A stretch of 64,000 bases of DNA from a virus. The stretch lies in IMG/VR virus record IMGVR_UViG_3300037797_000117, positions 64,001-128,000 of that record. The stretch is one strand, 5' to 3'. Shown here piece after piece: positions 53,133 through 64,000 of this stretch (the first letter of the stretch is position 1; the number at the start of each line of letters is the position of its first letter). Below the pieces are notes generated by a model. It ran no database searches, was not told where the DNA came from, and was given only the letters and a program-made list of their open reading frames with translations. The translations under genes and the position numbers were made by a program.

Positions 53133-54035
53133 ATGACAACAGCGTCGCCAGACCCGGACCGGGGCAGCGTGTGGGTAGCTGCGGTCGGGACGCACTACCT
53201 CGGCGAGGGATGGACCGACCTCGGCTACATCGACGAAACCGGCCTCGTGCCCGATCCGGACCCGCCACCCGCCCGGGCACCGGGCGGCACCGCCGACTTC
53301 GTCGACCGGCTCGACGCCGCCGTCGACGGGCGCTGCGGCTGCGGCTGCGGCACCCCCATCACCGACAGCTCCCCGTCGGCGTACTACGCCACCGCCCACT
53401 GCCAGTCGGCGTGGATGAACCAGCACGCCACCAACCCGGGCGAGGTGTACTCCCGCCCCGACGCCGCGTCGGTCCTCGTCGGCTCCGACGACACCCCGAT
53501 CCCGCTGCGCGAGCCGGCCCGGTCCCCCACCGGCGGCGGGTCGGGTGGCGCCAGCGGCGGGTGGGCGCCGCCGGGCGACCGGTTACAGGTGTACGGGCCG
53601 GGCACGCTTCCCGACTTTCTGTCCTACCACCGGTGGTGCGACGGTTGCCGCACCGCGACCGTGCCGGTCATCGTCGAAGACGACACCCACGACATCACGG
53701 TCGTCGGCGTGTGGGAACCGGTCCGGTCCTACCCGACGGGCCACCGCCAGTGGTGCTCGGCATGCGAAGCCACCTCGGCCGGGCCGGTGTACCTCCCGAC
53801 CGTGGAAACCGACCGGGGCCCGGTCCCCGGCTGGCTGTTCACCCTGTCCGGAAGTTACGGCCGGGTGTCATCGGCCCTGTCCCGGCTCGCGCTGGACCGG
53901 GCCGCCAACCGGCGGCTCCTCGTCGACTCGACGTGGCGCAGCATGGAACGCGACCTGGGCCGCTTCGAGCGGGAATGGTCCGGTCGGGCCGGGCGCCGGG
54001 CCGCCGCCGACCGGTGCACCGACCCACGCCTGTGA
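53133..54035 (+). CDS. hypothetical Cys-rich protein
   Basis: GWTDLGYIDE; CGCGCG; 300 aa. Confidence 0.6.
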   Translation: MTTASPDPDRGSVWVAAVGTHYLGEGWTDLGYIDETGLVPDPDPPPARAPGGTADFVDRLDAAVDGRCGCGCGTPITDSSPSAYYATAHCQSAWMNQHATNPGEVYSRPDAASVLVGSDDTPIPLREPARSPTGGGSGGASGGWAPPGDRLQVYGPGTLPDFLSYHRWCDGCRTATVPVIVEDDTHDITVVGVWEPVRSYPTGHRQWCSACEATSAGPVYLPTVETDRGPVPGWLFTLSGSYGRVSSALSRLALDRAANRRLLVDSTWRSMERDLGRFEREWSGRAGRRAAADRCTDPRL

Positions 54036-54304
54036 TTCTCACCTGGGACGGGGAACGTCCCCTCGCCGACGCCGACATGTTGGCCTCCCTGTATGAGGTG
54101 TCACCCCGCACGGTGCGGCGGCACTGCACCCCGGCCCGGTACCTGCCAAGGGTGGGGCTGCCCCGCGGTGTCGGCGGCACCGCCCTGTATGACGCCATCG
54201 CCGCCGGGGACGCCCTGGCCGGGATCGCCCCCCGCCCCGAGCGGACGCTGGCGGCGTTGCGGTACCGCGCTGAGCAGGAACGCAAGGGTCAGCGGGGACG
54301 CTGA
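54032..54304 (+). CDS. small HTH-like protein
   Basis: MLASLYEVSPRTVRRHC. Confidence 0.5.
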   Translation: MILTWDGERPLADADMLASLYEVSPRTVRRHCTPARYLPRVGLPRGVGGTALYDAIAAGDALAGIAPRPERTLAALRYRAEQERKGQRGR

Positions 54305-54328
54305 CACAGATCCACAGACAACAGGGGG

Positions 54329-54358
54329 TTGCGTCGTTCCCGGGGTACGGGGTACGGT
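54329..54358 (+). promoter_or_regulatory. operator-promoter copy 14 (heads the tRNA/ncRNA array)
   Basis: TTGCGT-N18-TACGGT; spacer CGTTCCCGGGGTACG. Confidence 0.7.
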
Positions 54359-54404
54359 AGTGGAGCAAGTACGGCGGAGGGGTTGCAACCCGAGCCGGGC
54401 GAGC

Positions 54405-54501
54405 AAAGCGATGGTGTAGCGGTAGCACCCCGCCCCGAGTACCCCCGCTGGCAGGTGGGGGGAAACGGGCGGCGGGCCAGGTTCGAATCCTGGGCGCTTG
54501 C
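54405..54501 (+). ncRNA. tRNA-like RNA with a 33-nt hairpin replacing the anticodon loop
   Basis: D arm TGGTGTAGCGGTAGCAC, stem CCGCC/GGCGG, T arm CCAGGTTCGAATCCTGG, acceptor AAGCG/CGCTT. Confidence 0.7.
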
Positions 54502-54734
54502 GGAAGACACGGCGGGGCACCGGCCGTGTCACCCCTGAAGGACACCTCTACTGCCAGGTAGGCGGTGTTCAACCCACAGGTGCAAGGACCCGGAAGCTAG
54601 CGCCGGGAACGAACTCCGGTACCGGGGTACCGGTGCGAGGACGGGGGGAACAATTTCCCCTTAATCCGCCCAGGAAGGGCTCCCGTCAGGGAAGCACCTG
54701 GGACCGGCCTCGCACCGGGCGCCGGAACCACACT

Positions 54735-54814
54735 GGGGATGCATGGGCAAGCCCAACCGGGCCGGCGGCAAGCCGGCAACCGAGGGAACGTCGGTTCGAC
54801 TCCGACCATCTCCA
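54735..54814 (+). ncRNA. tRNA-like RNA with Ala/tmRNA-type acceptor (G3-U70, A73) and atypical D and anticodon arms
   Basis: GGGGATG...GTCGGTTCGACTCCGAC CATCTCC A. Confidence 0.65.
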
Positions 54815-54995
54815 CAGGGCAATGCTGCTGAGCACGCTCCCCGACCCCCACACCAGGGGCACGTCGGGCCTAGGGCAAAAGGCAGCCGGCGGCGACCGTA
54901 ACCGGCACGAAGGACGCAAGGCTCAGGAGGGCGTCCCACGAACGGCTAGGGATGAGGCCGTTCACCCCGTTCCCCCGACGGAAGGGCACCCGACG

Positions 54996-55223
54996 ATGGC
55001 CGACAGGACGCTCACGATCACCCACCACGGTCAGACCTTCGACGTGGTCCGGCACAAGCCGAAGTACACCCACCTACGCGTCCCGTCCAGCGACCCCGAC
55101 CGCGACCCCTACGACGTGGTCGTGGACAAGGACGGCGCCCGCTGCACCTGCAAGGGCCACCTCTTCGGCAAGATGTGCCGGCACAAGAAGCTGGCGCAGA
55201 GCCTGGCCGGTCAGACCAGCTAG
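54996..55223 (+). CDS. SWIM zinc-finger protein
   Basis: YDV...RCTCKG...MCRH. Confidence 0.8.
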   Translation: MADRTLTITHHGQTFDVVRHKPKYTHLRVPSSDPDRDPYDVVVDKDGARCTCKGHLFGKMCRHKKLAQSLAGQTS

Positions 55224-55266
55224 AACAACCCGCACACCCGTTTCCCCAACGGAAAGGATCCCCACC

Positions 55267-55395
55267 ATGTGGTTGCTGGACATGCTGTTCGGCAGCTCCG
55301 ACGACTCGACCGACGAGGTTTACGGCGGCGACGACGGCTACGACGGCGCCGACTGGGAAGACGACTTCGACGGCTACGACGAAGACGAGTTCTGA
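55267..55395 (+). CDS. tiny very acidic peptide
   Basis: GAAAGGA RBS; MWLLDMLFGSSDDSTDE... Confidence 0.55.
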   Translation: MWLLDMLFGSSDDSTDEVYGGDDGYDGADWEDDFDGYDEDEF

Positions 55396-55405
55396 GGCGA
55401 TCGCC

Positions 55406-55588
55406 GTGGCCTACCTGGTGTACGACGCCATCAACGCGGTCTTCGAGGTGTGCTGCGCCGACGACGGCTGCAACGGAGGAGTGGTCGGCACGTTCGACTA
55501 CGAGGACGACGCCGACGAGTACGCCGAAGACCACGAATACGAGCACGACGTCGCCGCGTACGCCGACTACAACGGGGAGGTGTTCTGA
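55406..55588 (+). CDS. small acidic protein, paralogue A
   Basis: YDAINAVFEVCCADDGCNGGVVGTFDYEDDA. Confidence 0.6.
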   Translation: MAYLVYDAINAVFEVCCADDGCNGGVVGTFDYEDDADEYAEDHEYEHDVAAYADYNGEVF

Positions 55589-55592
55589 CCGG

Positions 55593-55748
55593 GTGGCCGA
55601 CTACCACTACGACGAGCTGTCCGACGCCTACGACGTCTACTGCGAAGACGGCTGCAACCCGAACAACGACGGCTACCTCGGCAGCTTCGACGACGAACGC
55701 GACGCCATCCTCACCGCCGACAACGACGAGACGTACCACTACGGCTAG
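55593..55748 (+). CDS. small acidic protein, paralogue B
   Basis: YDELSDAYDVYCEDGCNPNNDGYLGSFDDERDA. Confidence 0.6.
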   Translation: MADYHYDELSDAYDVYCEDGCNPNNDGYLGSFDDERDAILTADNDETYHYG

Positions 55749-56073
55749 CGAGGTGCCAGCCGGGCACCGGTTCAGCCAAAAAGCTAGACGGCCACCGGCC
55801 GAGCACCTACCGTGACACCCAAGCATCACCGACCAGCAGGGAGCCCCACCGTGACATTCGGACAGGCCAACGCCCACCGGCAGCCATTGCTGCCCGGCTG
55901 GCAGGCCATGGCCGAATGCCCGTCGCGATCCACGACCGGCGAGTACGCGAAGCAGGCCAACCTGGGGATCAGGTGGCGGATGTAGGCGCAGCACATCGAG
56001 CGCCGAGAGCCGCCCTCCCCCCACCGGGACAGGGCGGCTCTCCCGTTTGACCGGACAACTCCACAGCACCCTT

Positions 56074-56146
56074 TCGGGCGTAGCTCAACTGGAAGAGCAG
56101 CGGTCTCCAAAGCCGCAAGTTGCAGGTTCGAGTCCTGTCGCCCGGG
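56074..56146 (+). tRNA. tRNA-Trp(CCA)
   Basis: Cloverleaf; loop CTCCAAA; G73. Confidence 0.9.
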
Positions 56147-56536
56147 CGTAACACGAACGGTGCCCTTGATGTCGGGCGCGCACGGCACCATTTGAAAAGT
56201 CCATAGTGGATGGCAAAGAAAATGTTGCCGCTCACCCGGGCAGGCCCCAGGGGCTGCCGAGGTGAGCGAGGACGCCAACCCGGAACCCGCACCAGCCACC
56301 GGCACAGGTCCCCAGCATCATCGGGGCAGCACCAACGGCGGTGAACCGGTCGGGATTCGGCGGGGCGTCTACATACAGCAGCAAGCTGCCCCCGTCACGA
56401 ACGGTAGGGGTAGTTGCCAGGCGGCCCGTGATTCAGCGAGCGGGACGCGGCCGGCAGCAGACGTCGCCGGGCCCCGAGCCGACCCCGCAAGAGGGGCCGG
56501 AAGCCGGACATAGGGCCGGCGCCCGGCGGCGTCAAC

Positions 56537-56609
56537 GGGCCTGTAGCGCAACTGGTAGAGCACCACGCTGGCAGCGTGAAGGTTGGCGGTTCAAGTCCGC
56601 CCAGGTCCA
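56537..56609 (+). tRNA. tRNA-Ala(GGC)
   Basis: Loop CTGGCAG; G3-U70; A73. Confidence 0.9.
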
Positions 56610-56839
56610 CAGGGAGCGTCCAACAACGGTCTCCCATCAATCTGGTACCGCCGGGATAAGAGCCCCCGGGGGGAGCTGGCGACCGGCCCTGCACCGCGGC
56701 GGGATGCACACCTGCCCCGGAGGCCGTCTGGTCGCCTCGCCGGTCTGGCATGACCGGCGGGAACGGCGGTACCTGACAACTTCAACCGGCCTGGTCGCCG
56801 GCAACCTCCCGAGTCCTCGTGTCGACACGAGGAGGAGCC

Positions 56840-57148
56840 ATGACCGCGTTGGATGAAGCGATCGAGCAGTTGCAGCTCACGGAAGTGTTCGCCGCCGGCG
56901 AATACGACTACGAGTGGTGCGAGTTCAAGGCCTGGGTAGCCCCTTCGGGACGCTACTTCTGGTTTGCCGACTCGGGTTGCTCGTGCCGCGGGTACGGCGA
57001 GGACTCGTTCTACTCGGTGTCGGACTTCAGCGATGGAGCCCGCTCGACGTTGGAGCGCGCCTTCCGGGCCTGGCGGCAGAGCAGCGGCAACGGCCCGCTC
57101 GAAGGTGTCGACGAGGCCATGGAGAAGCTCCGGCAGCTCCGGCCCTGA
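56840..57148 (+). CDS. hypothetical phage-type protein
   Basis: GGAGGAG RBS; YDYEW...DSGCSC. Confidence 0.75.
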   Translation: MTALDEAIEQLQLTEVFAAGEYDYEWCEFKAWVAPSGRYFWFADSGCSCRGYGEDSFYSVSDFSDGARSTLERAFRAWRQSSGNGPLEGVDEAMEKLRQLRP

Positions 57149-57173
57149 CGACACCGCCCCTTCGGGGGCACCC

Positions 57174-57248
57174 GGTCCGCTAGCTCAATGGAAGAGCATC
57201 TGACTCTTAATCAGCCGGTTCCCGGTTCGAGCCCGGGGCGGACTACCA
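57174..57248 (+). tRNA. tRNA-Lys(CTT)
   Basis: Loop CTCTTAA; encoded CCA. Confidence 0.92.
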
Positions 57249-57402
57249 GGTACAGCAGTGCGTAACGCACCCCACCGGGGTGTGGCGTGGCGAGCACCGC
57301 CGACCGTGGGAGCGGTACGTGGTGTGGCGCCGGGCAGGGCTCTCCGTGCTCCCACACGCGATCCCGCGGGCCGGTTCCCGCAGCCGAACGTGAGTCTGTG
57401 CC

Positions 57403-57474
57403 GCGTCTGTACCTCAGTGGTCAGAGGACCGTCTGCTAAGGCGGAAGTCGCGGGTTCGAATCCCGCCGGGCGCA
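57403..57474 (+). tRNA. atypical tRNA: CTGCTAA (Ser GCT) on a short-variable-arm body with an irregular anticodon loop
   Basis: Acceptor GCGTCTG/CGGGCGC A; stem CCGTC/GGCGG encloses only 6 nt. Confidence 0.55.
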
Positions 57475-57480
57475 CGTCGT

Positions 57481-57608
57481 GCCTAGGAAGCTCAATCGGT
57501 GGAGCATCCACGTTCCCGAGCCGCAGACCGTGTCGACGCGGTCACGGCGGCCAGCGCGTACGAGCTGGGGAAGGTGGAAGGTTGCGGGTTCGAGTCCCGC
57601 CCTGGGCC
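57481..57608 (+). ncRNA. tRNA-like RNA with a 62-nt insert in the anticodon loop
   Basis: GCCTAGG/CCTGGGC acceptor, GCTC/GAGC D stem, TCCAC/GTGGA stem, GCGGGTTCGAGTCCCGC T arm. Confidence 0.75.
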
Positions 57609-57615
57609 AGCACGT

Positions 57616-57706
57616 GGTTCGCAATGCCCGGCTTGCCTCCGGGTATGTCGCCGCCTCAACGGGCGGCGGTGGGTGTTGCCGGGGTTCGACTCCCCGGACG
57701 CGGATC
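57616..57706 (+). ncRNA. four-way-junction RNA with a T arm
   Basis: GGTTCGC/GCGGATC closing stem, two long hairpins, CCGGGGTTCGACTCCCCGG. Confidence 0.5.
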
Positions 57707-57748
57707 TAGGCTCCCGCGTGGCCGGATGCCAGCCGACGAACCACCCTT

Positions 57749-57820
57749 GCCCTCCTGGCGTAACCGGAAGCGCACGCGGTTGAAGCCCGCGAGGTTCCCG
57801 TTCGATTCGGGAGGAGGGTA
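57749..57820 (+). tRNA. tRNA-Phe(GAA)
   Basis: Loop TTGAAGC; full cloverleaf. Confidence 0.8.
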
Positions 57821-57940
57821 CTTGCGGAGAGAAGGGGAGCGCGGGTAGTCCGCGCGGAGATAGGCATCGTCTTCGGGCTGGCCTCCCGGGACCACCGAGC
57901 CCGGCCACGTACACCCGTCCCCCTCTCCGCATTCAACCCT

Positions 57941-58013
57941 GCGGACCTGGTGAGGCTGGTGCTCACGTCGGTCTTCCAAACCGAAGACGCGGGTTCGATC
58001 CCCGCGGTCCGCT
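57941..58013 (+). tRNA. tRNA-Gly(TCC)
   Basis: Loop CTTCCAA; GCGG acceptor; U73. Confidence 0.9.
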
Positions 58014-58300
58014 CAACCCTCACCCATCGCCTGCACGTACAGGGCGCGGAAGTTGGGGCAGTCGTGCAGGACCGCCACCCGCCGGGCGGCTTCGGCCTTG
58101 CCGGAGCTGACCTGGGTGATGGGGGCCATGACGACCTGCTGCCGGCCGCGGACCGCAGACCGGCCCGGTACCCATCCCGCTTGGCCGGCCGGGAGATGGT
58201 CGGTGTCGACCGGGTCGGCGTCGAACAGGCGCCGCCGCCCGTCGCGGCAGCGAAGCCACTGCACGTACACGGGGCAGTATTCGCATCGGCGGATGGCCAC
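58013..58300 (-). CDS. small Zn-binding hypothetical protein
   Basis: CEYC...FDADP...LHDCP. Confidence 0.6.
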   Translation of the reverse strand: MAIRRCEYCPVYVQWLRCRDGRRRLFDADPVDTDHLPAGQAGWVPGRSAVRGRQQVVMAPITQVSSGKAEAARRVAVLHDCPNFRALYVQAMGEG

Positions 58301-58466
58301 GTCGAACGCAACGACCAGGTGCCGGCGGCGGTTACCACCCGATCGGCGTCGCCCGCCAGGCCAGCAAAGGTGGACATGTCCCCTCCGGTGGGGACAACGA
58401 CTTGGTTATCGGTCAGGACCCGGTTAGCCGGTTAGGTTCCACACCACCACCCGGCATGATCAGCAC

Positions 58467-58709
58467 GTGGAATTAGCGATCATCGCAGCAGCCCTCATCG
58501 TGGCCGTGGCCATCATGTTCGTCGGCACCCGCCGCAACTACCAGCCCCGCCGCTACCGCCCCGCCGGGCAGCCGGCCCGCCCACCAGCACCGGCCGCGTC
58601 CGCACCGCTGAAGCTCCCCGACGCCGGTCCCGACGTCATCACCTACCGGCTGCCACGCGCGCTGCCCACCCCGAACCGGGCATGGCGCACCACCGGCAGC
58701 CGCCGATAG
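58467..58709 (+). CDS. small membrane protein
   Basis: N-terminal TM. Confidence 0.5.
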   Translation: MELAIIAAALIVAVAIMFVGTRRNYQPRRYRPAGQPARPPAPAASAPLKLPDAGPDVITYRLPRALPTPNRAWRTTGSRR

Positions 58710-58720
58710 CGTGCCCGGGG

Positions 58721-59122
58721 TCAGTCGCAGGCGGTGCCGTCCTTGTCACGGTCCAACGCAGGCCGGTACCCGTCGTCGCGGCCGCGACGTAGAGGTGCCG
58801 CACCCGCCTCGCGGGCGGCCGTGCAGTTGGCGTAGTACCGGTCCCGGATATCGGCCGGTTCCACCGGTTCCGGAACAGACGTAGCCGGCGGCGGGGCGGC
58901 GGTCGTGGGCGATGCCGACGGGGCAGGGGAGCTGACCACCGCGGTGAACGTCGGTGTCGGTGAGGTGAACGTCGGCGACGGCCGCGGCGAGTTCACCACC
59001 CGGATCGGGTTCGGGTCCGGCTCCACGTCGGTTCCGACACACGACCCGATCCCGGCCAGGCACGCCAACACGGCGAGGATGCCACCGGAGATGAGAAGCC
59101 CGTTACGGGTGGTCGGATGCAC
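58721..59122 (-). CDS. Excalibur calcium-binding domain surface protein
   Basis: YYANCTAAREAGAAPL...GYRPALDRDKDGTACD; N-terminal TM. Confidence 0.85.
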   Translation of the reverse strand: MHPTTRNGLLISGGILAVLACLAGIGSCVGTDVEPDPNPIRVVNSPRPSPTFTSPTPTFTAVVSSPAPSASPTTAAPPPATSVPEPVEPADIRDRYYANCTAAREAGAAPLRRGRDDGYRPALDRDKDGTACD

Positions 59123-59135
59123 GAAGGTCTCCCTT

Positions 59136-59209
59136 GCCCTGGTGGCCCAACTGGCAGAGGCGCCGCTTTCAAAAGGCGGAGGTTGCGGGTTCGACTCCCG
59201 CCCGGGGCA
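59136..59209 (+). tRNA. tRNA-Leu(CAA), short variable arm
   Basis: Loop TTCAAAA; Leu-type D arm GGCAGAGGCG; A73. Confidence 0.8.
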
Positions 59210-59469
59210 CGTAAGCGTGACGCGGCCCGGCCGGTGAACGGTACCGGCCGGGCCGCGCAAGACAGCATAGTTCCCCGCACTGTCCGTCAGGTAGACGGCA
59301 TGACACCAACTCAGCGGGAACTCGTCACCGAACTCATCGTCGCCGAACTGGCCGGTATTACGGCCGCCTCCCTCGCAGCTGGCGCCGACCCGGCCGAAGT
59401 CGTCGCCGAGCTGGACCGCCGGATCCGGTCGATCAGGGAAAAAGGCGCCCGGTAGCTCCGGGCGTCAAC

Positions 59470-59544
59470 GCCGCCGTAGCTCAGCCAGGTCGGAGCGCTT
59501 CCTTGGTATGGAAGAGGCCGGGAGTTCGAGTCTCCCCGGCGGCT
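59470..59544 (+). tRNA. tRNA-Thr(GGT)
   Basis: Loop TTGGTAT. Confidence 0.9.
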
Positions 59545-59632
59545 CGTCACGTGGGTAGCAGCGGGAGGAACACCCGCTGAGGTCGATCGCCGGGCCGGTG
59601 GAAGCAAGCTGCCGACACTGCCCACGTACAAC

Positions 59633-59705
59633 GCGGACGTAGCTCAGTTGGAAGAGCCCGGCGTTGCCGACGCCGAGGTGGCCGGTTCGAGCCCGGTCGT
59701 CCGCT
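59633..59705 (+). tRNA. tRNA-Gly(GCC)
   Basis: Loop TTGCCGA; U73. Confidence 0.9.
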
Positions 59706-59744
59706 CACGACTTGATCCACCCCACGTGAAGGAGGTGATCCGGG

Positions 59745-60188
59745 GTGAGCCAGGTACTCGTGCTCAACGCCGACTGGGGCCCGCTCCACTGGGTCACCAT
59801 CCGGCACGCCGTCAGGATGCTCGTACGGCAGGTCGCCGAGGTCCACGAGGCCGAACCCGATCGGCTCATCGGCATCTTCCCGCTGCCGCGCGTCGTGCGG
59901 CTCGTGGCGTACGTGAAGACGAAGTGGCGACACACCCGCGGCCCGGCCTGGTCGAGGCCCGGTGTCCTCGCCCGAGACGGATATACCTGCGTCTACTGCG
60001 GTGGATGCGCGTCGACCGTCGACCATGTCCTTCCCCGTTCCCGTAACGGCGGGAACACCTGGTCCAACACCGTCGCCGCTTGCGGCGGCTGCAACCAGCG
60101 CAAGGGTGACCGCACCCCGGCCGAGGCCGGCATGAAGCTGCGGATCGTCCCGGCCACGCCCACCTGGGCGTCGCTGCTGCGTTGGTAG
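59745..60188 (+). CDS. HNH endonuclease
   Basis: VLVLNA...VLARDGYTCVYCG...TVDHVLPRSRNG.NTW.N.VAAC..CN.RKG. Confidence 0.92.
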   Translation: MSQVLVLNADWGPLHWVTIRHAVRMLVRQVAEVHEAEPDRLIGIFPLPRVVRLVAYVKTKWRHTRGPAWSRPGVLARDGYTCVYCGGCASTVDHVLPRSRNGGNTWSNTVAACGGCNQRKGDRTPAEAGMKLRIVPATPTWASLLRW

Positions 60189-60231
60189 CCCGGTGGGGCG
60201 CCGCTCTGTGGCGGTGCGGCGCTCCACCCAT

Positions 60232-60304
60232 TCCGCGCTGGTGCAACTGGCAGCACGCTCGGCTCTGACCCGAGAGATTGGACGTTCAAATCGTCCGCGC
60301 GGAG
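60232..60304 (+). tRNA. tRNA-Gln(CTG)
   Basis: Loop CTCTGAC; U1-A72; G73. Confidence 0.88.
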
Positions 60305-61010
60305 CGGGATGAAGTCACACCGTGAGTCAGCGAGCCGGGGCGCCGGGGCGCTGCCAATACTCGGTCCCTGAACGGATCCCGGGTGACGGAAGCCTGGCCC
60401 AAACCCGTGACAGTCGGAGAGACGACGACACCCCGGAGCGACGGGGGGCAACGAGGTGCGGGGCCTTGCCCGTGACCGCCCTCGGCCACCGGTGGAAGCC
60501 CGGTCGCGACGCGGACCGGGCCAAGCAGGGACCACGGTGCACGGTGGGAGCCCGTAAAGCGACTTGGTCGGCTGTGGTCCACGGACGCGTGGCCTGCTCG
60601 CAAGCCTGGAAGTGCTCTACCCGCGTGAAGAGGTACAGGGTCCGGCACCTGCCCCGCCGGAGGTCACCGGTAGGACTGGCGTCCGGCGGAGCTTAATCCG
60701 AGGTGGCGGGTTCAATTCCCGTTCGGTGCACGTAGGGAAGCTGGGCAACAGCCGTGAGGAACCGCAGGATCTTGTGAGGGCAACCCTCGACACTCCCGCA
60801 GGCCGACACCGGCGCGTCATTCGTTGCAGGGCCCAGCACGTCGCCGTGGGTGGCTTGGTTCCCCGGTGGCACAAGGTCATCCGAAAAGGGCGAAGCCCCA
60901 CGGGGAGCGTCCCCACCAGTAGAACGCAGGCCGGCAGCACCGGCACCGCGGGGTTTATCCGGCGATCGCGACCGGAGAGTGCGAACCCGCCACGCTGGGA
61001 GGAGACCACC
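60305..61010 (+). ncRNA. candidate large structured ncRNA
   Basis: 700 nt with no convincing ORF, many hairpins, internal T arm GCGGGTTCAATTCCCGT. Confidence 0.4.
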
Positions 61011-61011
61011 T

Positions 61012-61182
61012 GGTCGCTGTAGCTCAACAGGTAGAGCAGCGGACCACCGGACGATAGGTACGCGCTGAACAACGACGCCGTGCCTGGCCGCCTCTGTTGG
61101 ACTCTGCGCCGCATGCGGGACGTACGCCTCGGCTCCAGTCCGGTGCCTCCGTGGGTTGCGGGTTCGAGCCCCGCCGGCGGCC
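61012..61182 (+). ncRNA. His-type tRNA-like RNA (G-1:C73) with a 104-nt insert in the anticodon loop
   Basis: GGTCGCTG/CGGCGGCC, canonical D and T arms, GCGGA/TCCGT stem extended by CACCGGAC/GTCCGGTG. Confidence 0.75.
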
Positions 61183-61188
61183 CTCAAT

Positions 61189-61278
61189 TGTCGTGTAGCT
61201 CAATTGGTGAGAGCACCCGCACCGAGCGGGGCCGGGCGACGGCCCGGACGGATGCCGGTTCGACTCCGGCTGCGACAG
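61189..61278 (+). ncRNA. tRNA-like RNA with a 5-nt anticodon loop and long variable arm (G73)
   Basis: TGTCGTG/TGCGACA; CCCGC-ACCGA-GCGGG; CCGGGC-GACG-GCCCGG. Confidence 0.65.
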
Positions 61279-61284
61279 CTCGTG

Positions 61285-61403
61285 GAATCGTGTAGCTCAA
61301 CTGGCAGAGCACCGTCGTGTGGACGTAGCCGGCCCCTCAGGAGGAGACGGCCTAAGCGCGATACCCGGGCGATGCGGAGTTCGATCCTCCGCCACGATCC
61401 CCA
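61285..61403 (+). ncRNA. His-like tRNA-like RNA with expanded anticodon and variable region
   Basis: ATCGTG/CACGAT acceptor, C73 plus CCA; CCGTC-GTGTGGA...-GACGG with a 29-nt loop. Confidence 0.65.
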
Positions 61404-61515
61404 CCAACCGGCGCCCATCGTGGACGGTCGGGTGATCCGGAGGTGTCGGCGTATCTGCCAGGGCGATCTGTCGTTGGCTAGAGGCCCACCGTGTCCACGC
61501 CGAAAGGATCACCCT

Positions 61516-62025
61516 GTGCGTCGGTTCCGTTATCTGGCCCTGTCCGTTCTGGCGATCGGGCTGGCTACCCTGTTCGCGCCTACCGCTGCGCACGCCGCGG
61601 TGACTCCGGGGGCGTGGTGTAAGAAGGCAGAGACCGGCGCATACGGCCAGTCAACCGACGGCGACTGGTACCGGTGCACCCTGAACGCCGGGGCCACGCT
61701 TCCCAAATGGATGCCGTCGTCCCCGCCGCCGCCCGGGCAGAACCCCAGCGCTCCGGCCCCGTCGAAGCGGACCCCGGACGGGCCGTGCCTGGACAGCGAA
61801 GCCGGGCAGGAGTTCAGCACCTCCGCGGGCAAGCTGTACGTGTGCCAGAAGAAGGGCACCAGCTACGCGTGGACCCTCGTCACCGGCGGCGACGACCAGC
61901 CGGGAACGCTACCAAAGACCGGCGTCGACGGGCGGGTCGCGGCCGCAGCCGGCACAGCGCTTGTCGCCGCCGGCGGTGGCCTGTTCTGGGCGATGCGCCG
62001 CCGCCGTGTGAGTTTCCAAGCCTGA
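61516..62025 (+). CDS. sortase-anchored (LPXTG) surface protein
   Basis: Signal peptide ending AHA, LPKTG, TM, RRRR tail. Confidence 0.85.
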   Translation: MRRFRYLALSVLAIGLATLFAPTAAHAAVTPGAWCKKAETGAYGQSTDGDWYRCTLNAGATLPKWMPSSPPPPGQNPSAPAPSKRTPDGPCLDSEAGQEFSTSAGKLYVCQKKGTSYAWTLVTGGDDQPGTLPKTGVDGRVAAAAGTALVAAGGGLFWAMRRRRVSFQA

Positions 62026-62043
62026 CCCGACCCTGAGCAAGCA

Positions 62044-62080
62044 AGCGAGCCCGGCCCCCCATCACAGGGCCGGGCTCGCT
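62044..62080 (+). terminator. hairpin
   Basis: AGCGAGCCCGGCCC/GGGCCGGGCTCGCT. Confidence 0.5.
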
Positions 62081-62091
62081 CTGGTCGGAAC

Positions 62092-62165
62092 GCCGGCGTA
62101 GCTCAGGTTGGTTGAGCAGCGCACTTGTAATGCGAAGGTCGCCGGTTCAAATCCGGCCGCCGGCT
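62092..62165 (+). tRNA. tRNA-Thr(TGT)
   Basis: Loop CTTGTAA. Confidence 0.9.
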
Positions 62166-62188
62166 CGTTCGTCTGGGTAAGGAGGAAT

Positions 62189-62503
62189 GTGGAGCTGGAC
62201 TTCTCCGAGTTTCACCCGACCGGGGACCACTGGCCCGGCACCGCGCGCTGCCAGGCCCTCTACGGGGGGTGGCGCCGACACCTGTACCTGGCATGGGTGT
62301 TTCACCGCCGTGACCAGGTGCTCGGCCCGTTCCGGAAGGTGTTGTGCTGCCCGTTCGGCCGGCACCGGTGGCAGGTCTGGTACAGCCAGGAGGAGCACGG
62401 CGGCCCGGCGCAGGTTCACCCGCTGTGCCCGGACTGCGAAACCACCCGGCTCCCGTCCGAACACGACGTCGACAACAAGCCGGACCTGCCATGGCTGGAG
62501 TAG
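62189..62503 (+). CDS. hypothetical protein
   Basis: AAGGAGG RBS; CPFGRH...CPDC. Confidence 0.65.
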   Translation: MELDFSEFHPTGDHWPGTARCQALYGGWRRHLYLAWVFHRRDQVLGPFRKVLCCPFGRHRWQVWYSQEEHGGPAQVHPLCPDCETTRLPSEHDVDNKPDLPWLE

Positions 62504-62612
62504 CCGGACTCATCTTGGCTTCCCGACGAGAGGAAGAACAGCGTGGAAGGTGCACCAGCTCCCGAGACGTAGAGAGCCCGAAACGCGGGCTCCCTACGCG
62601 AGGGAGCAGACG

Positions 62613-63020
62613 ATGTCCGACACGGACAAGGACCAGCCCTGGTGGGTGACCGCCGAATGGTGGGAGCCCAGCCACACCTACTGTGACGTGTCCGCCTCGC
62701 GCCCGTTCGGCGCGCGTGGACCCCGCCGCCCGTGTAACCTGCCCGCCCGGCCGGTCGTCGCCCGTGACCGGCCCGGGTTCTCCGGGTGGCGCCGCGAACC
62801 CCGCTGCCGCTGGTGGCCTGTCTGGGACCGGCCGGGCCGCCGGTACGCGCTCGGCGGCGTGCCCCGCTGGTTCGTCCACCACGTGTGGACCGGCGCCGAA
62901 CGGGCCGCGGTGCGAGACGACTGCCGCCGCGCGGCCGCCGAGTACCACGCCACCCGCGAAGTCGACACCATGCCCAGCGTCAGGCAGCATCGGCACAACG
63001 CGATGTGGCTCTGGGACTGA
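62613..63020 (+). CDS. hypothetical Trp/Arg-rich protein
   Basis: MSDTDKDQPWWV...HRHNAMWLWD; GGGAG RBS. Confidence 0.65.
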   Translation: MSDTDKDQPWWVTAEWWEPSHTYCDVSASRPFGARGPRRPCNLPARPVVARDRPGFSGWRREPRCRWWPVWDRPGRRYALGGVPRWFVHHVWTGAERAAVRDDCRRAAAEYHATREVDTMPSVRQHRHNAMWLWD

Positions 63021-63231
63021 ACCGAAGGGAGAGCCGACGTGGTCTACCCCCGACGCTGCCCGGTCTGTTCCGCCCCGGGTGGCTTCCACGACTACGGCGT
63101 CCACGCCGATGTGCGGCGCCAGATCGCCGAGGCCGCACCCGTCACCCCGGACGAGCCCGGCGAGGACGGCGGGGTGGTGACGATCCGGACGGACGACAGG
63201 CTCTAGCCTCGCGTCCGGGATGTGGGGAATT

Positions 63232-63304
63232 GCCGGGGATGCATTACGGGTGGTGCGTCCGTTTCGTACGCGGAAGGAGCCGGTTCGAGCCCGGCCCCCC
63301 GGCT
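63232..63304 (+). tRNA. tRNA-Thr(CGT)
   Basis: Loop TTCGTAC; GCCGGGG/CCCCGGC; slightly irregular D arm. Confidence 0.75.
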
Positions 63305-63312
63305 CCCCCACA

Positions 63313-63342
63313 TTGTGTCGCTCTGGGGGTACGGGGTACGCT
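63313..63342 (+). promoter_or_regulatory. operator-promoter copy 15
   Basis: TTGTGT-N18-TACGCT; spacer CGCTCTGGGGGTACG; ATG 7 nt later suggests a leaderless mRNA. Confidence 0.65.
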
Positions 63343-63348
63343 GAGCCA

Positions 63349-64000
63349 ATGCCTATCGACCTGAGTAAAACCCCACTGGCCGACAAGTACGCGGCCGCCG
63401 GCGTCAGCCTTCAGAAGAAACGCCTCGACGGTGTCCGCGCCGCCGTCTACCTGGTCCTCGACTTCTCCCGCTCCATGCGCGGCTTCTACCGCGACGGCTC
63501 GGTCCAACACCTCACCGAGCAGATCCTCGCCCTCGCCGCCCACTTCGACGACGACGGCAGCGTCCCGGTCATCCTGTTCGACAGCTACGCCCGGGAACCG
63601 GTGAACGTGTCGGTCGACGATTTCGCCGGCTCCATCGGCCGGATCGTCGCCCAGGCCGGAACCATGGGCTCGACCAACTACGCCTCCGCCATGCACATGG
63701 TCATCGGCCACCACCGGGTCCACGGGGGCGGCCAGCCCGCCTTCGTCATCTTCCAGACCGACGGATCCCCCGACTCCAAGTCCGCCGCCGAACAGACCCT
63801 GTGCGCCGCCGCGACGATGCCGATCTTCTGGCAGTTCATCGGGTTCGGCGACGACGAGTTCAAGTTCCTCCGCAAGCTCGACGACTTGAAGGTCCCGAGA
63901 AAGCGCGTCGTCGACAACGCCGGCTTCTTCCCCGCCGGCTTCAACCCGAAGGGCATTCCGGACGGCGTGCTGTACGACAACCTGATGTCCGAGTTCCCGC
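63349..64000 (+). CDS. vWA domain TerF-like protein (3' partial)
   Basis: VYLVLDFSRSM (MIDAS), GSTNY, FQTDG, PIFWQFIGFG, VVDNAGFF. Confidence 0.9.
   Translation, partial: MPIDLSKTPLADKYAAAGVSLQKKRLDGVRAAVYLVLDFSRSMRGFYRDGSVQHLTEQILALAAHFDDDGSVPVILFDSYAREPVNVSVDDFAGSIGRIVAQAGTMGSTNYASAMHMVIGHHRVHGGGQPAFVIFQTDGSPDSKSAAEQTLCAAATMPIFWQFIGFGDDEFKFLRKLDDLKVPRKRVVDNAGFFPAGFNPKGIPDGVLYDNLMSEFP

Follow-up and report, generated by a model that had tools for sequence, protein, structure and literature searches.

Three tandem tRNA-shaped RNAs in the tRNA array of a putative actinophage are probably non-decoding, two of them with histidine-type ends

Within the tRNA array of the complete genome of an uncultured soil virus we identified three tandem tRNA-shaped RNAs, here U1, U2 and U3 (Table 1), and we consider it probable that all three are mature, unspliced and non-decoding, i.e., "irregular tRNAs". 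The window, by which we mean the whole stretch of 64,000 nt that was analyzed, covers positions 64001-128000 of an IMG/VR virus record that is complete at 166,387 bp and has direct terminal repeats and a GC content of ~69%. A sequence-only reading of this window had described three units lying about 6 nt apart, which our analysis confirmed, with both spacers being 6 nt in length. It had also proposed that the units with histidine (His) identity either contain short spliced introns or are mimics that can be charged with His. The mimics fit our findings, in that U1, U3 and an orthologous unit from a second tRNA array all retain G-1 and C73, but the introns are unsupported.

Table 1. Coordinates of U1-U3 and of the other features discussed; positions are those of the window unless a genome or contig position is given
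Feature	Position	Strand	Description
U1	61012-61182	+	tRNA-shaped, His-type acceptor end; G-1 at 61012, C73 at 61182
U1 enlarged arm	61044-61147	+	104 nt replacing the 7-nt anticodon loop; ends GTG-CC (61143-61147)
Spacer U1-U2	61183-61188	+	6 nt, CTCAAT; a CCTCAAT tail also follows the L013 unit
U2	61189-61278	+	class-II-like tRNA-shaped RNA; acceptor TGTCGTG/TGCGACA, G73, T arm
U2 variable-arm hairpin	61232-61247	+	CCGGGC-GACG-GCCCGG, 6 bp; same letters in the L013 orthologue
Spacer U2-U3	61279-61284	+	6 nt
U3	61285-61403	+	tRNA-His-derived; G-1 at 61285, C73 at 61400, CCA at 61401-61403
U3 central arm	61314-61373	+	long irregular helix spanning anticodon-arm and variable-region positions
U3 arm tip	61337-61348	+	window-specific TCAGGAGGAGAC; L013 has GCGG here
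L013 His-type unit	L013:3145-3254	-	orthologue of U3; the U2-like unit follows after 5 nt
L013 U2-like unit	L013:3051-3142	-	orthologue of U2
L013 two-unit block	L013:3043-3269	-	His-type unit and U2-like unit, between tRNA-Gln and tRNA-Leu(GAG)
Flanks without the two units	L044:2555-2572; L045:641-644		same tRNA-Gln and tRNA-Leu(GAG) flanks
Canonical tRNA-His	genome 138003-138079		G-1, GUG, C73, CCA; 13 kb downstream, outside the window
Odd tRNA	54735-54815	+	81 nt
tRNA with 6-nt anticodon loop	57403-57475; L044:496-566		kept in a related array
tRNA-shaped RNA with insert	57481-57608; L014:10705-10832; L015:5879-6005		128 nt, branched ~60-nt insert in the anticodon loop
HNH endonuclease	59745-60188	+	between tRNA-Gly and tRNA-Gln
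ORF-poor block	60316-60732; L015:6015-6432; L014:10903-11259		5' of U1
LPKTG-anchor protein	61516-62025	+	169-aa secreted protein, signal peptide, LPKTG sortase anchor (PF00746); 113 nt downstream of U3
RNA ligase (PF09414)	genome 129549-130397 (= L009:11549-12397)		beyond the window end, within the tRNA array
IMPase-family phosphatase	genome 130935-131864 (= L009:12935-13864)		adjoins the RNA ligase in the array

The portal protein of this phage is ~34% identical to the portals of Gordonia and Rhodococcus siphophages, and the HNH endonuclease encoded in the array has >1,800 homologues, many of which are located on chromosomes of the Micromonosporaceae (Actinoplanes, Phytohabitans, Asanoa and Micromonospora; 72-79% identity) and therefore point to this family as the host. 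Taken together, the siphophage-like portal and these HNH homologues suggest that the record represents an uncultured actinophage, with a member of the Micromonosporaceae probably being its host. ARAGORN identified 39 tRNA genes, 38 of which are on the plus strand between genome positions 118.7 and 139.7 kb; U1-U3 lie inside this array, in which the other small genes encode the HNH endonuclease, a vWA-TerF-like protein, an RNA ligase, an IMPase-family phosphatase and a dCTP deaminase. Relatives of the RNA ligase are present in two other viral contigs (L002 and L003), and there is no tRNA array there. Homologues of the LPKTG-anchor protein (58-61% identity) occur in related phage contigs in other contexts, and homologues of P0001 were also found in other contexts, without the U1-U3 units. 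Our search for promoter and terminator sites around U1-U3 found none, and our search of the phage for a HisRS, a CCA-adding enzyme and Ro60 likewise found none.

The His-type ends of U1 and U3 are beyond chance. We read the base at position -1 and the discriminator base of every ordinary tRNA in this phage (38) and in three related arrays (42), and this analysis demonstrated that C73 is present in 1 of 38 ordinary tRNAs of the phage, i.e., its true tRNA-His, and in 0 of 42 in the three related arrays, with G-1 being present in 11 of the 80 ordinary tRNAs of all four. G-1 and C73 occur together in U1, U3 and the orthologous unit, and in each of these the encoded G-1 lies opposite C73, as in a bacterial tRNA-His. 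C73 was also considered as a mark of every insert-bearing unit, and was rejected as such, since the orthologues of the unit at 57481 carry A73. Neither U1 nor U3 presents GUG in a normal anticodon stem-loop, with U3 requiring a hypothetical 22-nt excision and the GTG of U1 being located within a helix, and the features of a decoding adaptor (a 7-nt loop, U33 and a conserved anticodon) are lacking in U1, U2 and U3 alike. The earlier statement that no normal tRNA-His is present holds for the window, but the phage as a whole encodes a canonical copy, and U1 and U3 therefore have no decoding need to fill. A canonical tRNA-Arg(CCG) is also encoded by the phage.

U1 contains a 7-bp acceptor stem (GTCGCTG/CGGCGGC) with two G-U pairs, canonical D and T arms, and an anticodon stem (GCGGA/TCCGT, at 61039-61043/61148-61152) that encloses 104 nt in place of the usual 7. 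It scores 37.7 bits against the Rfam tRNA family RF00005 (gathering score 29), it is called by ARAGORN in intron mode only, and its minimum free energy (MFE) structure is a cloverleaf that includes the G-1:C73 pair. The G-1, the C73 and the GTG-CC at the end of the insert are as they had been described from the sequence. Examination of the enlarged arm showed that its base is an 8-bp helix, formed by CACCGGAC (61045-61052) with GTCCGGTG (61138-61145). The "latent GTG" claimed for this insert is present, but it is the complement of a CAC within this 8-bp helix extension and is not above chance, and the loop that would result from a hypothetical excision, CCGTGCC, has neither U33 nor a purine at position 37. 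The predicted folding of the arm is not superior to that of shuffled sequence (z about +1), no Rfam family was found for it at E<=1, and neither the phage nor any of the related loci yielded a homologue of it. U1 was also compared with the phage tRNA-His as a possible paralogue, and this was rejected: the top match of 41/50 is within the background range of 33-43.

U3 contains a D arm, a T arm and, between them, CCGTC followed by GTGTGGA (61312-61323). From position -1 to position 38 it reads as a textbook 5' half of tRNA-His, in which GUG occupies 34-36, and a single base separates its loop (GTGTGGA) from that of the phage tRNA-His (TTGTGGA). With this complete 5' half, U3 is therefore derived from a tRNA-His gene. 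A re-reading of the sequence confirmed the C73-CCA end, the GTGTGGA loop, the repeated GGA, and that removal of 22 nt yields CCGTC-GTGTGGA-GACGG. U3 is unreported by Rfam even at E<=1, and its acceptor stem contains an A1-C72 mismatch, in contrast to the clean G1-C72 of the orthologous unit.

We identified this orthologous unit using a 20-mer from U3, which matched JACCDR010863009.1, an 8,954-bp metagenome contig (here L013) whose minus strand carries a syntenic tRNA array; the other two metagenome matches to the 20-mer (L011 and L012) were rejected as chance. The His-type unit of L013 is 84% identical to U3 and scores 30 bits against RF00005. Comparison of the central arms demonstrated that 51 of 51 nt are identical when the tip is excluded (25 nt before it and 26 nt after it), and that the tips themselves differ, being CCCCTCAGGAGGAGACGGCC in the window and CCCCGCGGGGCC in L013. 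In the MFE structures of both sequences and in their consensus fold, the 5' segment including GUGUGGA is paired with the conserved 3' segment, so that U3 is predicted to fold into one irregular arm of ~60 nt with a GGCC/GGCC-closed hairpin at its end, and with the indel located at the tip of this hairpin. Judged from these two sequences, the indel behaves as the variable tip of a hairpin in a structured RNA does, and unlike an intron. The arm is otherwise invariant, so the long-arm fold comes without covariation, from one orthologous contig, and this invariance could reflect the recent transfer of a mobile cassette instead of selection.

ARAGORN calls U2 in normal mode too, as a 91-nt tRNA-Arg(CCG) with a long variable arm and A33, and U2 scores 42.9 bits against RF00005, again above the gathering score of 29. 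Its anticodon stem (CCCGC/GCGGG) closes over a 5-nt loop, ACCGA, which has A33 if one pair is opened to give 7 nt, and its folding z score is -2.0. Between U2 and its orthologue in L013 (83% identity) there are 2 compensatory pairs, one in the anticodon stem and one in the T stem, and zero broken pairs. The loop is ACCGA in the window versus GCCUGA in L013, and the names given by ARAGORN change with it, from Arg-CCG to Gln-CTG. A covariance model built from both copies (R1) matched only those two in 210 kb of related DNA. Comparison of the two copies thus indicates that the structure of U2 is selected and that its "anticodon" is not, i.e., that U2 is a conserved but non-decoding tRNA-like RNA with a long variable arm and a 5-6 nt "anticodon" loop that is not conserved.

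Our survey of the array and its relatives also identified other units with an insert or an odd loop. Three phages carry the 128-nt RNA at 57481-57608, which shows 9 compensatory pairs and a very stable fold (z -3.8); both relatives have A as the discriminator base where the window copy has C, and the "anticodon" varies (Ser-GGA versus Arg-GCG). Conservation of this family indicates that tRNA bodies with an enlarged anticodon arm are a maintained feature of these arrays. The ORF-poor block 5' of U1 is 84% and 77% identical to its counterparts in L015 and L014, respectively, and contains a T-arm-like element at its end, with ARAGORN in intron mode reading it as a tRNA with a ~157-nt insert. The tRNA at 57403-57475 scores 58 bits with Rfam and is given a two-base "anticodon" by ARAGORN, ct in the window and cg in L044. 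The tRNA at 54735-54815, named Cys(GCA) by ARAGORN, combines an acceptor of the alanine type (G3-U70, A73) with an aberrant D arm; when considered with the His-type and Ser-like units, its sequence suggests sets of identity elements that are independent of the anticodon.

The ordinary tRNAs common to the L013 array and that of our phage are 76-79% identical, and their spacers do not align; by this measure, conservation of U2 and U3 is at least equal to that of true tRNAs. The L013 unit is a mosaic, with its 5' part nearest to U3 (25/27) and with its 3' part and CCTCAAT tail nearest to U1 (28/34), so that U1 and U3 represent paralogues, derived from a single His-type ancestor, with different arms. 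In two related arrays, L044 and L045, the tRNA-Gln and tRNA-Leu(GAG) that flank the two units of L013 are present, and the pair is absent. This presence or absence between the same two flanking tRNAs indicates that the His-type unit and U2 form an accessory cassette. U1-U3 are absent from the L014, L015, L044 and L045 arrays. No close relatives were found in the viral contig collection by way of the downstream LPXTG protein, DnaB or the portal protein, a scan of the same collection for two U3 motifs gave no match, and the region had no match to isolate phages by blastn. A scan of genome contigs for an 18-mer gave 24 matches, all of which were rejected as chance.

The units could instead be neutral debris, i.e., tRNA genes broken in a fast-changing array by insertion and by recombination between paralogues, still processed but functionless. 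The mosaic units, the presence and absence of the cassette among relatives, the A1-C72 mismatch of U3 and the unique, not notably structured insert of U1 would all be expected of such debris. Against this, true tRNAs are less well conserved between the two phages than U2 and U3, U2 contains compensatory changes without a single broken pair, every core has intact acceptor, D and T arms, and G-1 and C73 are found in all three His-type copies. We therefore regard debris as an unlikely explanation for these RNAs.

It is very unlikely, in our view, that U1 and U3 are spliced, i.e., that ~100 nt and 22 nt, respectively, are removed to give a working tRNA-His(GUG). ARAGORN sees U3 in intron mode only, as a tRNA-His(GTG) with a 22-nt intron at 37/38, and excision of this segment rebuilds the stem. 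The would-be anticodon stem of U3 encloses 29 nt, but the GACGG on which the 22-nt reading depends takes its initial four letters (GAC G) from the window-specific tip. The GACGG strand is absent from the L013 unit, as is the closing stem; no excision there restores an anticodon stem, and ARAGORN in intron mode makes no call. The indel between the window and L013 is not the 22-nt unit and lies at a hairpin tip away from the predicted junctions, and it removes the 3' strand of the stem, so that no discrete insert is seen. Even if "spliced", U3 would retain a 23-nt, poorly paired variable region, and the "spliced" loop of U1 would be the one described above. Unexplained introns are known from phage tRNAs in Lak megaphages (PMC6784885), and an RNA ligase gene is present in our array. 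This ligase could reseal RNA, but no precise cutter was found in the phage: the complete genome contains no match to tRNA splicing endonuclease (PF01974) or RtcB (PF01139), and Rfam gave no match to a group I intron (RF00028; usually >140 nt) or to any ribozyme at 54000-64000 at E<=1. EndA is not known in bacteria. These findings, and the canonical tRNA-His elsewhere in the phage, count against the short spliced introns proposed from the sequence.

Finally, it is scarcely credible that these RNAs act like Y RNAs in partnering a Ro60-type protein, or belong to some other dedicated scaffold of RNA and protein resembling YrlA. The design of YrlA is a tRNA-like module with a long helix (PMC4201824), and a weak YrlA match is present at 61129-61238 (RF02553; 33.7 bits), but this score is far under the gathering value of 69 and the match runs from the final part of U1 into the beginning of U2, i.e., it reflects two neighboring tRNA bodies. 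In addition, U1-U3 end at an acceptor stem and not at the long helix, and no TROVE/Ro60 gene was found in the phage.

If U1-U3 are non-decoding tRNA mimics, as we favor, they would be co-transcribed with the phage tRNA array and released from its transcript by host tRNA-processing enzymes (RNase P and 3' processing). RNase P would leave G-1 on U1 and U3, cutting one base early because G-1 pairs with C73; a cut one base early by RNase P is the established bacterial route for tRNA-His. U1 and U3 would descend from tRNA-His genes in which the anticodon arm was swapped for a long helix (with 104 nt enclosed in the one and a 60-nt arm in the other), and would keep the parts read by RNase P, the CCA-adding enzyme and HisRS, i.e., G-1:C73, the acceptor stem and the D and T arms. 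U2 would keep its class-II shape, with a long variable arm and G73, and a degenerate loop of 5-6 nt. With a complete tRNA "top half", U1 and U3 would presumably be processed, possibly histidylated, and unused in decoding.

HisRS reads mainly G-1 and C73. Considering this reliance and the precedent of Mukai et al., U1 and U3 may therefore be chargeable by HisRS and are probably not used in decoding. U2 may be chargeable by SerRS. Rather than serving as adaptors on the ribosome, such RNAs might lure or sequester host enzymes that act on tRNA by binding or cleavage, or might carry a functional arm; of these, a decoy or sponge that occupies host proteins binding or cleaving tRNA would be the most parsimonious guess. 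The lack of covariation for the long-arm fold, the U1 arm being unique and no more stably folded than shuffled sequence, and the A1-C72 mismatch in U3 weigh against these RNAs being mimics.

We put forward only tentatively, and as an improbable extension, that these RNAs belong to an anticodon-less set that keeps anticodon-independent synthetase marks, is truly aminoacylated and has a role off the ribosome. The proposed identity marks would be His for U1 and U3 (G-1:C73), Ser-like for U2 (long variable arm, G73) and Ala for the tRNA at 54735-54815 (G3-U70, A73). Once charged, these RNAs could be decoys for toxins or defense nucleases that hit charged or intact tRNAs, or could be amino-acid donors, with the swappable long arms bearing the specific function.

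Phage tRNA arrays are usually read as kits of ordinary tRNAs for codon supply or defense evasion. By its sequence, the array described here appears to add RNAs whose decoding arm has been replaced, but which retain all that tRNA processing requires and probably also what HisRS needs to recognize them. Our analysis also illustrates that tRNA finders run in intron mode can yield calls of an "intron-containing tRNA-His", and that a single orthologue suffices to overturn such a call.

The closest published parallel is the irregular G-1 "tRNA1" species that Mukai et al. 2017 (PMC5389517) identified in tRNA polycistrons from soil metatranscriptomes. E. coli HisRS charged irregular G-1 tRNAs of this kind, which nevertheless failed to insert His when a Thr codon (ACC) was tested in an E. 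coli reporter (PMC5389517). Those RNAs, like ours, are in tandem, with a G-1/His-type end and no usable His anticodon, and are co-transcribed, as we predict for U1-U3; the tandem units 6 nt apart, the G-1 with C73 and the lack of a usable His anticodon seen here are the features of irregular G-1 tRNAs. However, the RNAs of Mukai et al. have anticodon loops of normal size (GGU), with an 8/4 acceptor/T layout in one of the two G-1 species tested, and were assigned to acidobacteria, near toxin-antitoxin genes, whereas U1-U3 are located in the array of a probable actinophage, and U1 and U3 have a 7/5 layout with the anticodon arm replaced by 60-110 nt; the likeness meant here is one of features. 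A 7/5 tRNA-His body with a 60-110 nt replacement of the anticodon arm in an actinophage is undescribed in the literature that we searched.

Canonical bacterial tRNA-His shares with U1 and U3 the G-1/C73 pair and the acceptor, D and T arms, with U3 matching it up to position 38, but it has a 7-nt loop closed by a conserved stem, which is absent from both. The "enigmatic" introns of Lak megaphages (Devoto et al. 2019, PMC6784885) likewise represent extra sequence in the anticodon region detected in intron mode; there, however, the same tRNA is found with and without the insert and excision yields a normal tRNA, whereas here the orthologue keeps the insert and loses a strand of the stem. YrlA and other bacterial Y RNAs (RF02553; Chen et al. 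2014, PMC4201824) are likewise non-decoding mimics that join a tRNA-like module to a long helix, but their connectivity is the opposite, with the ends on the long helix; U1-U3 score below threshold for this family, in a phage without Ro60. The His-accepting tRNA-like structures (TLS-His) of plant RNA viruses (PMC8127992) resemble U1 and U3 in being viral mimics of the tRNA-His end that engage host enzymes with no decoding, but they are pseudoknotted, form the 3' termini of the genomes of eukaryotic RNA viruses, and are unrelated to U1 and U3 in sequence and in host. If U1 and U3 are charged yet unused in translation, they would represent a class of bacterial viral tRNA mimic that parallels these His-accepting ends of plant viruses, and would provide a natural viral setting for the irregular G-1 tRNAs of Mukai et al.
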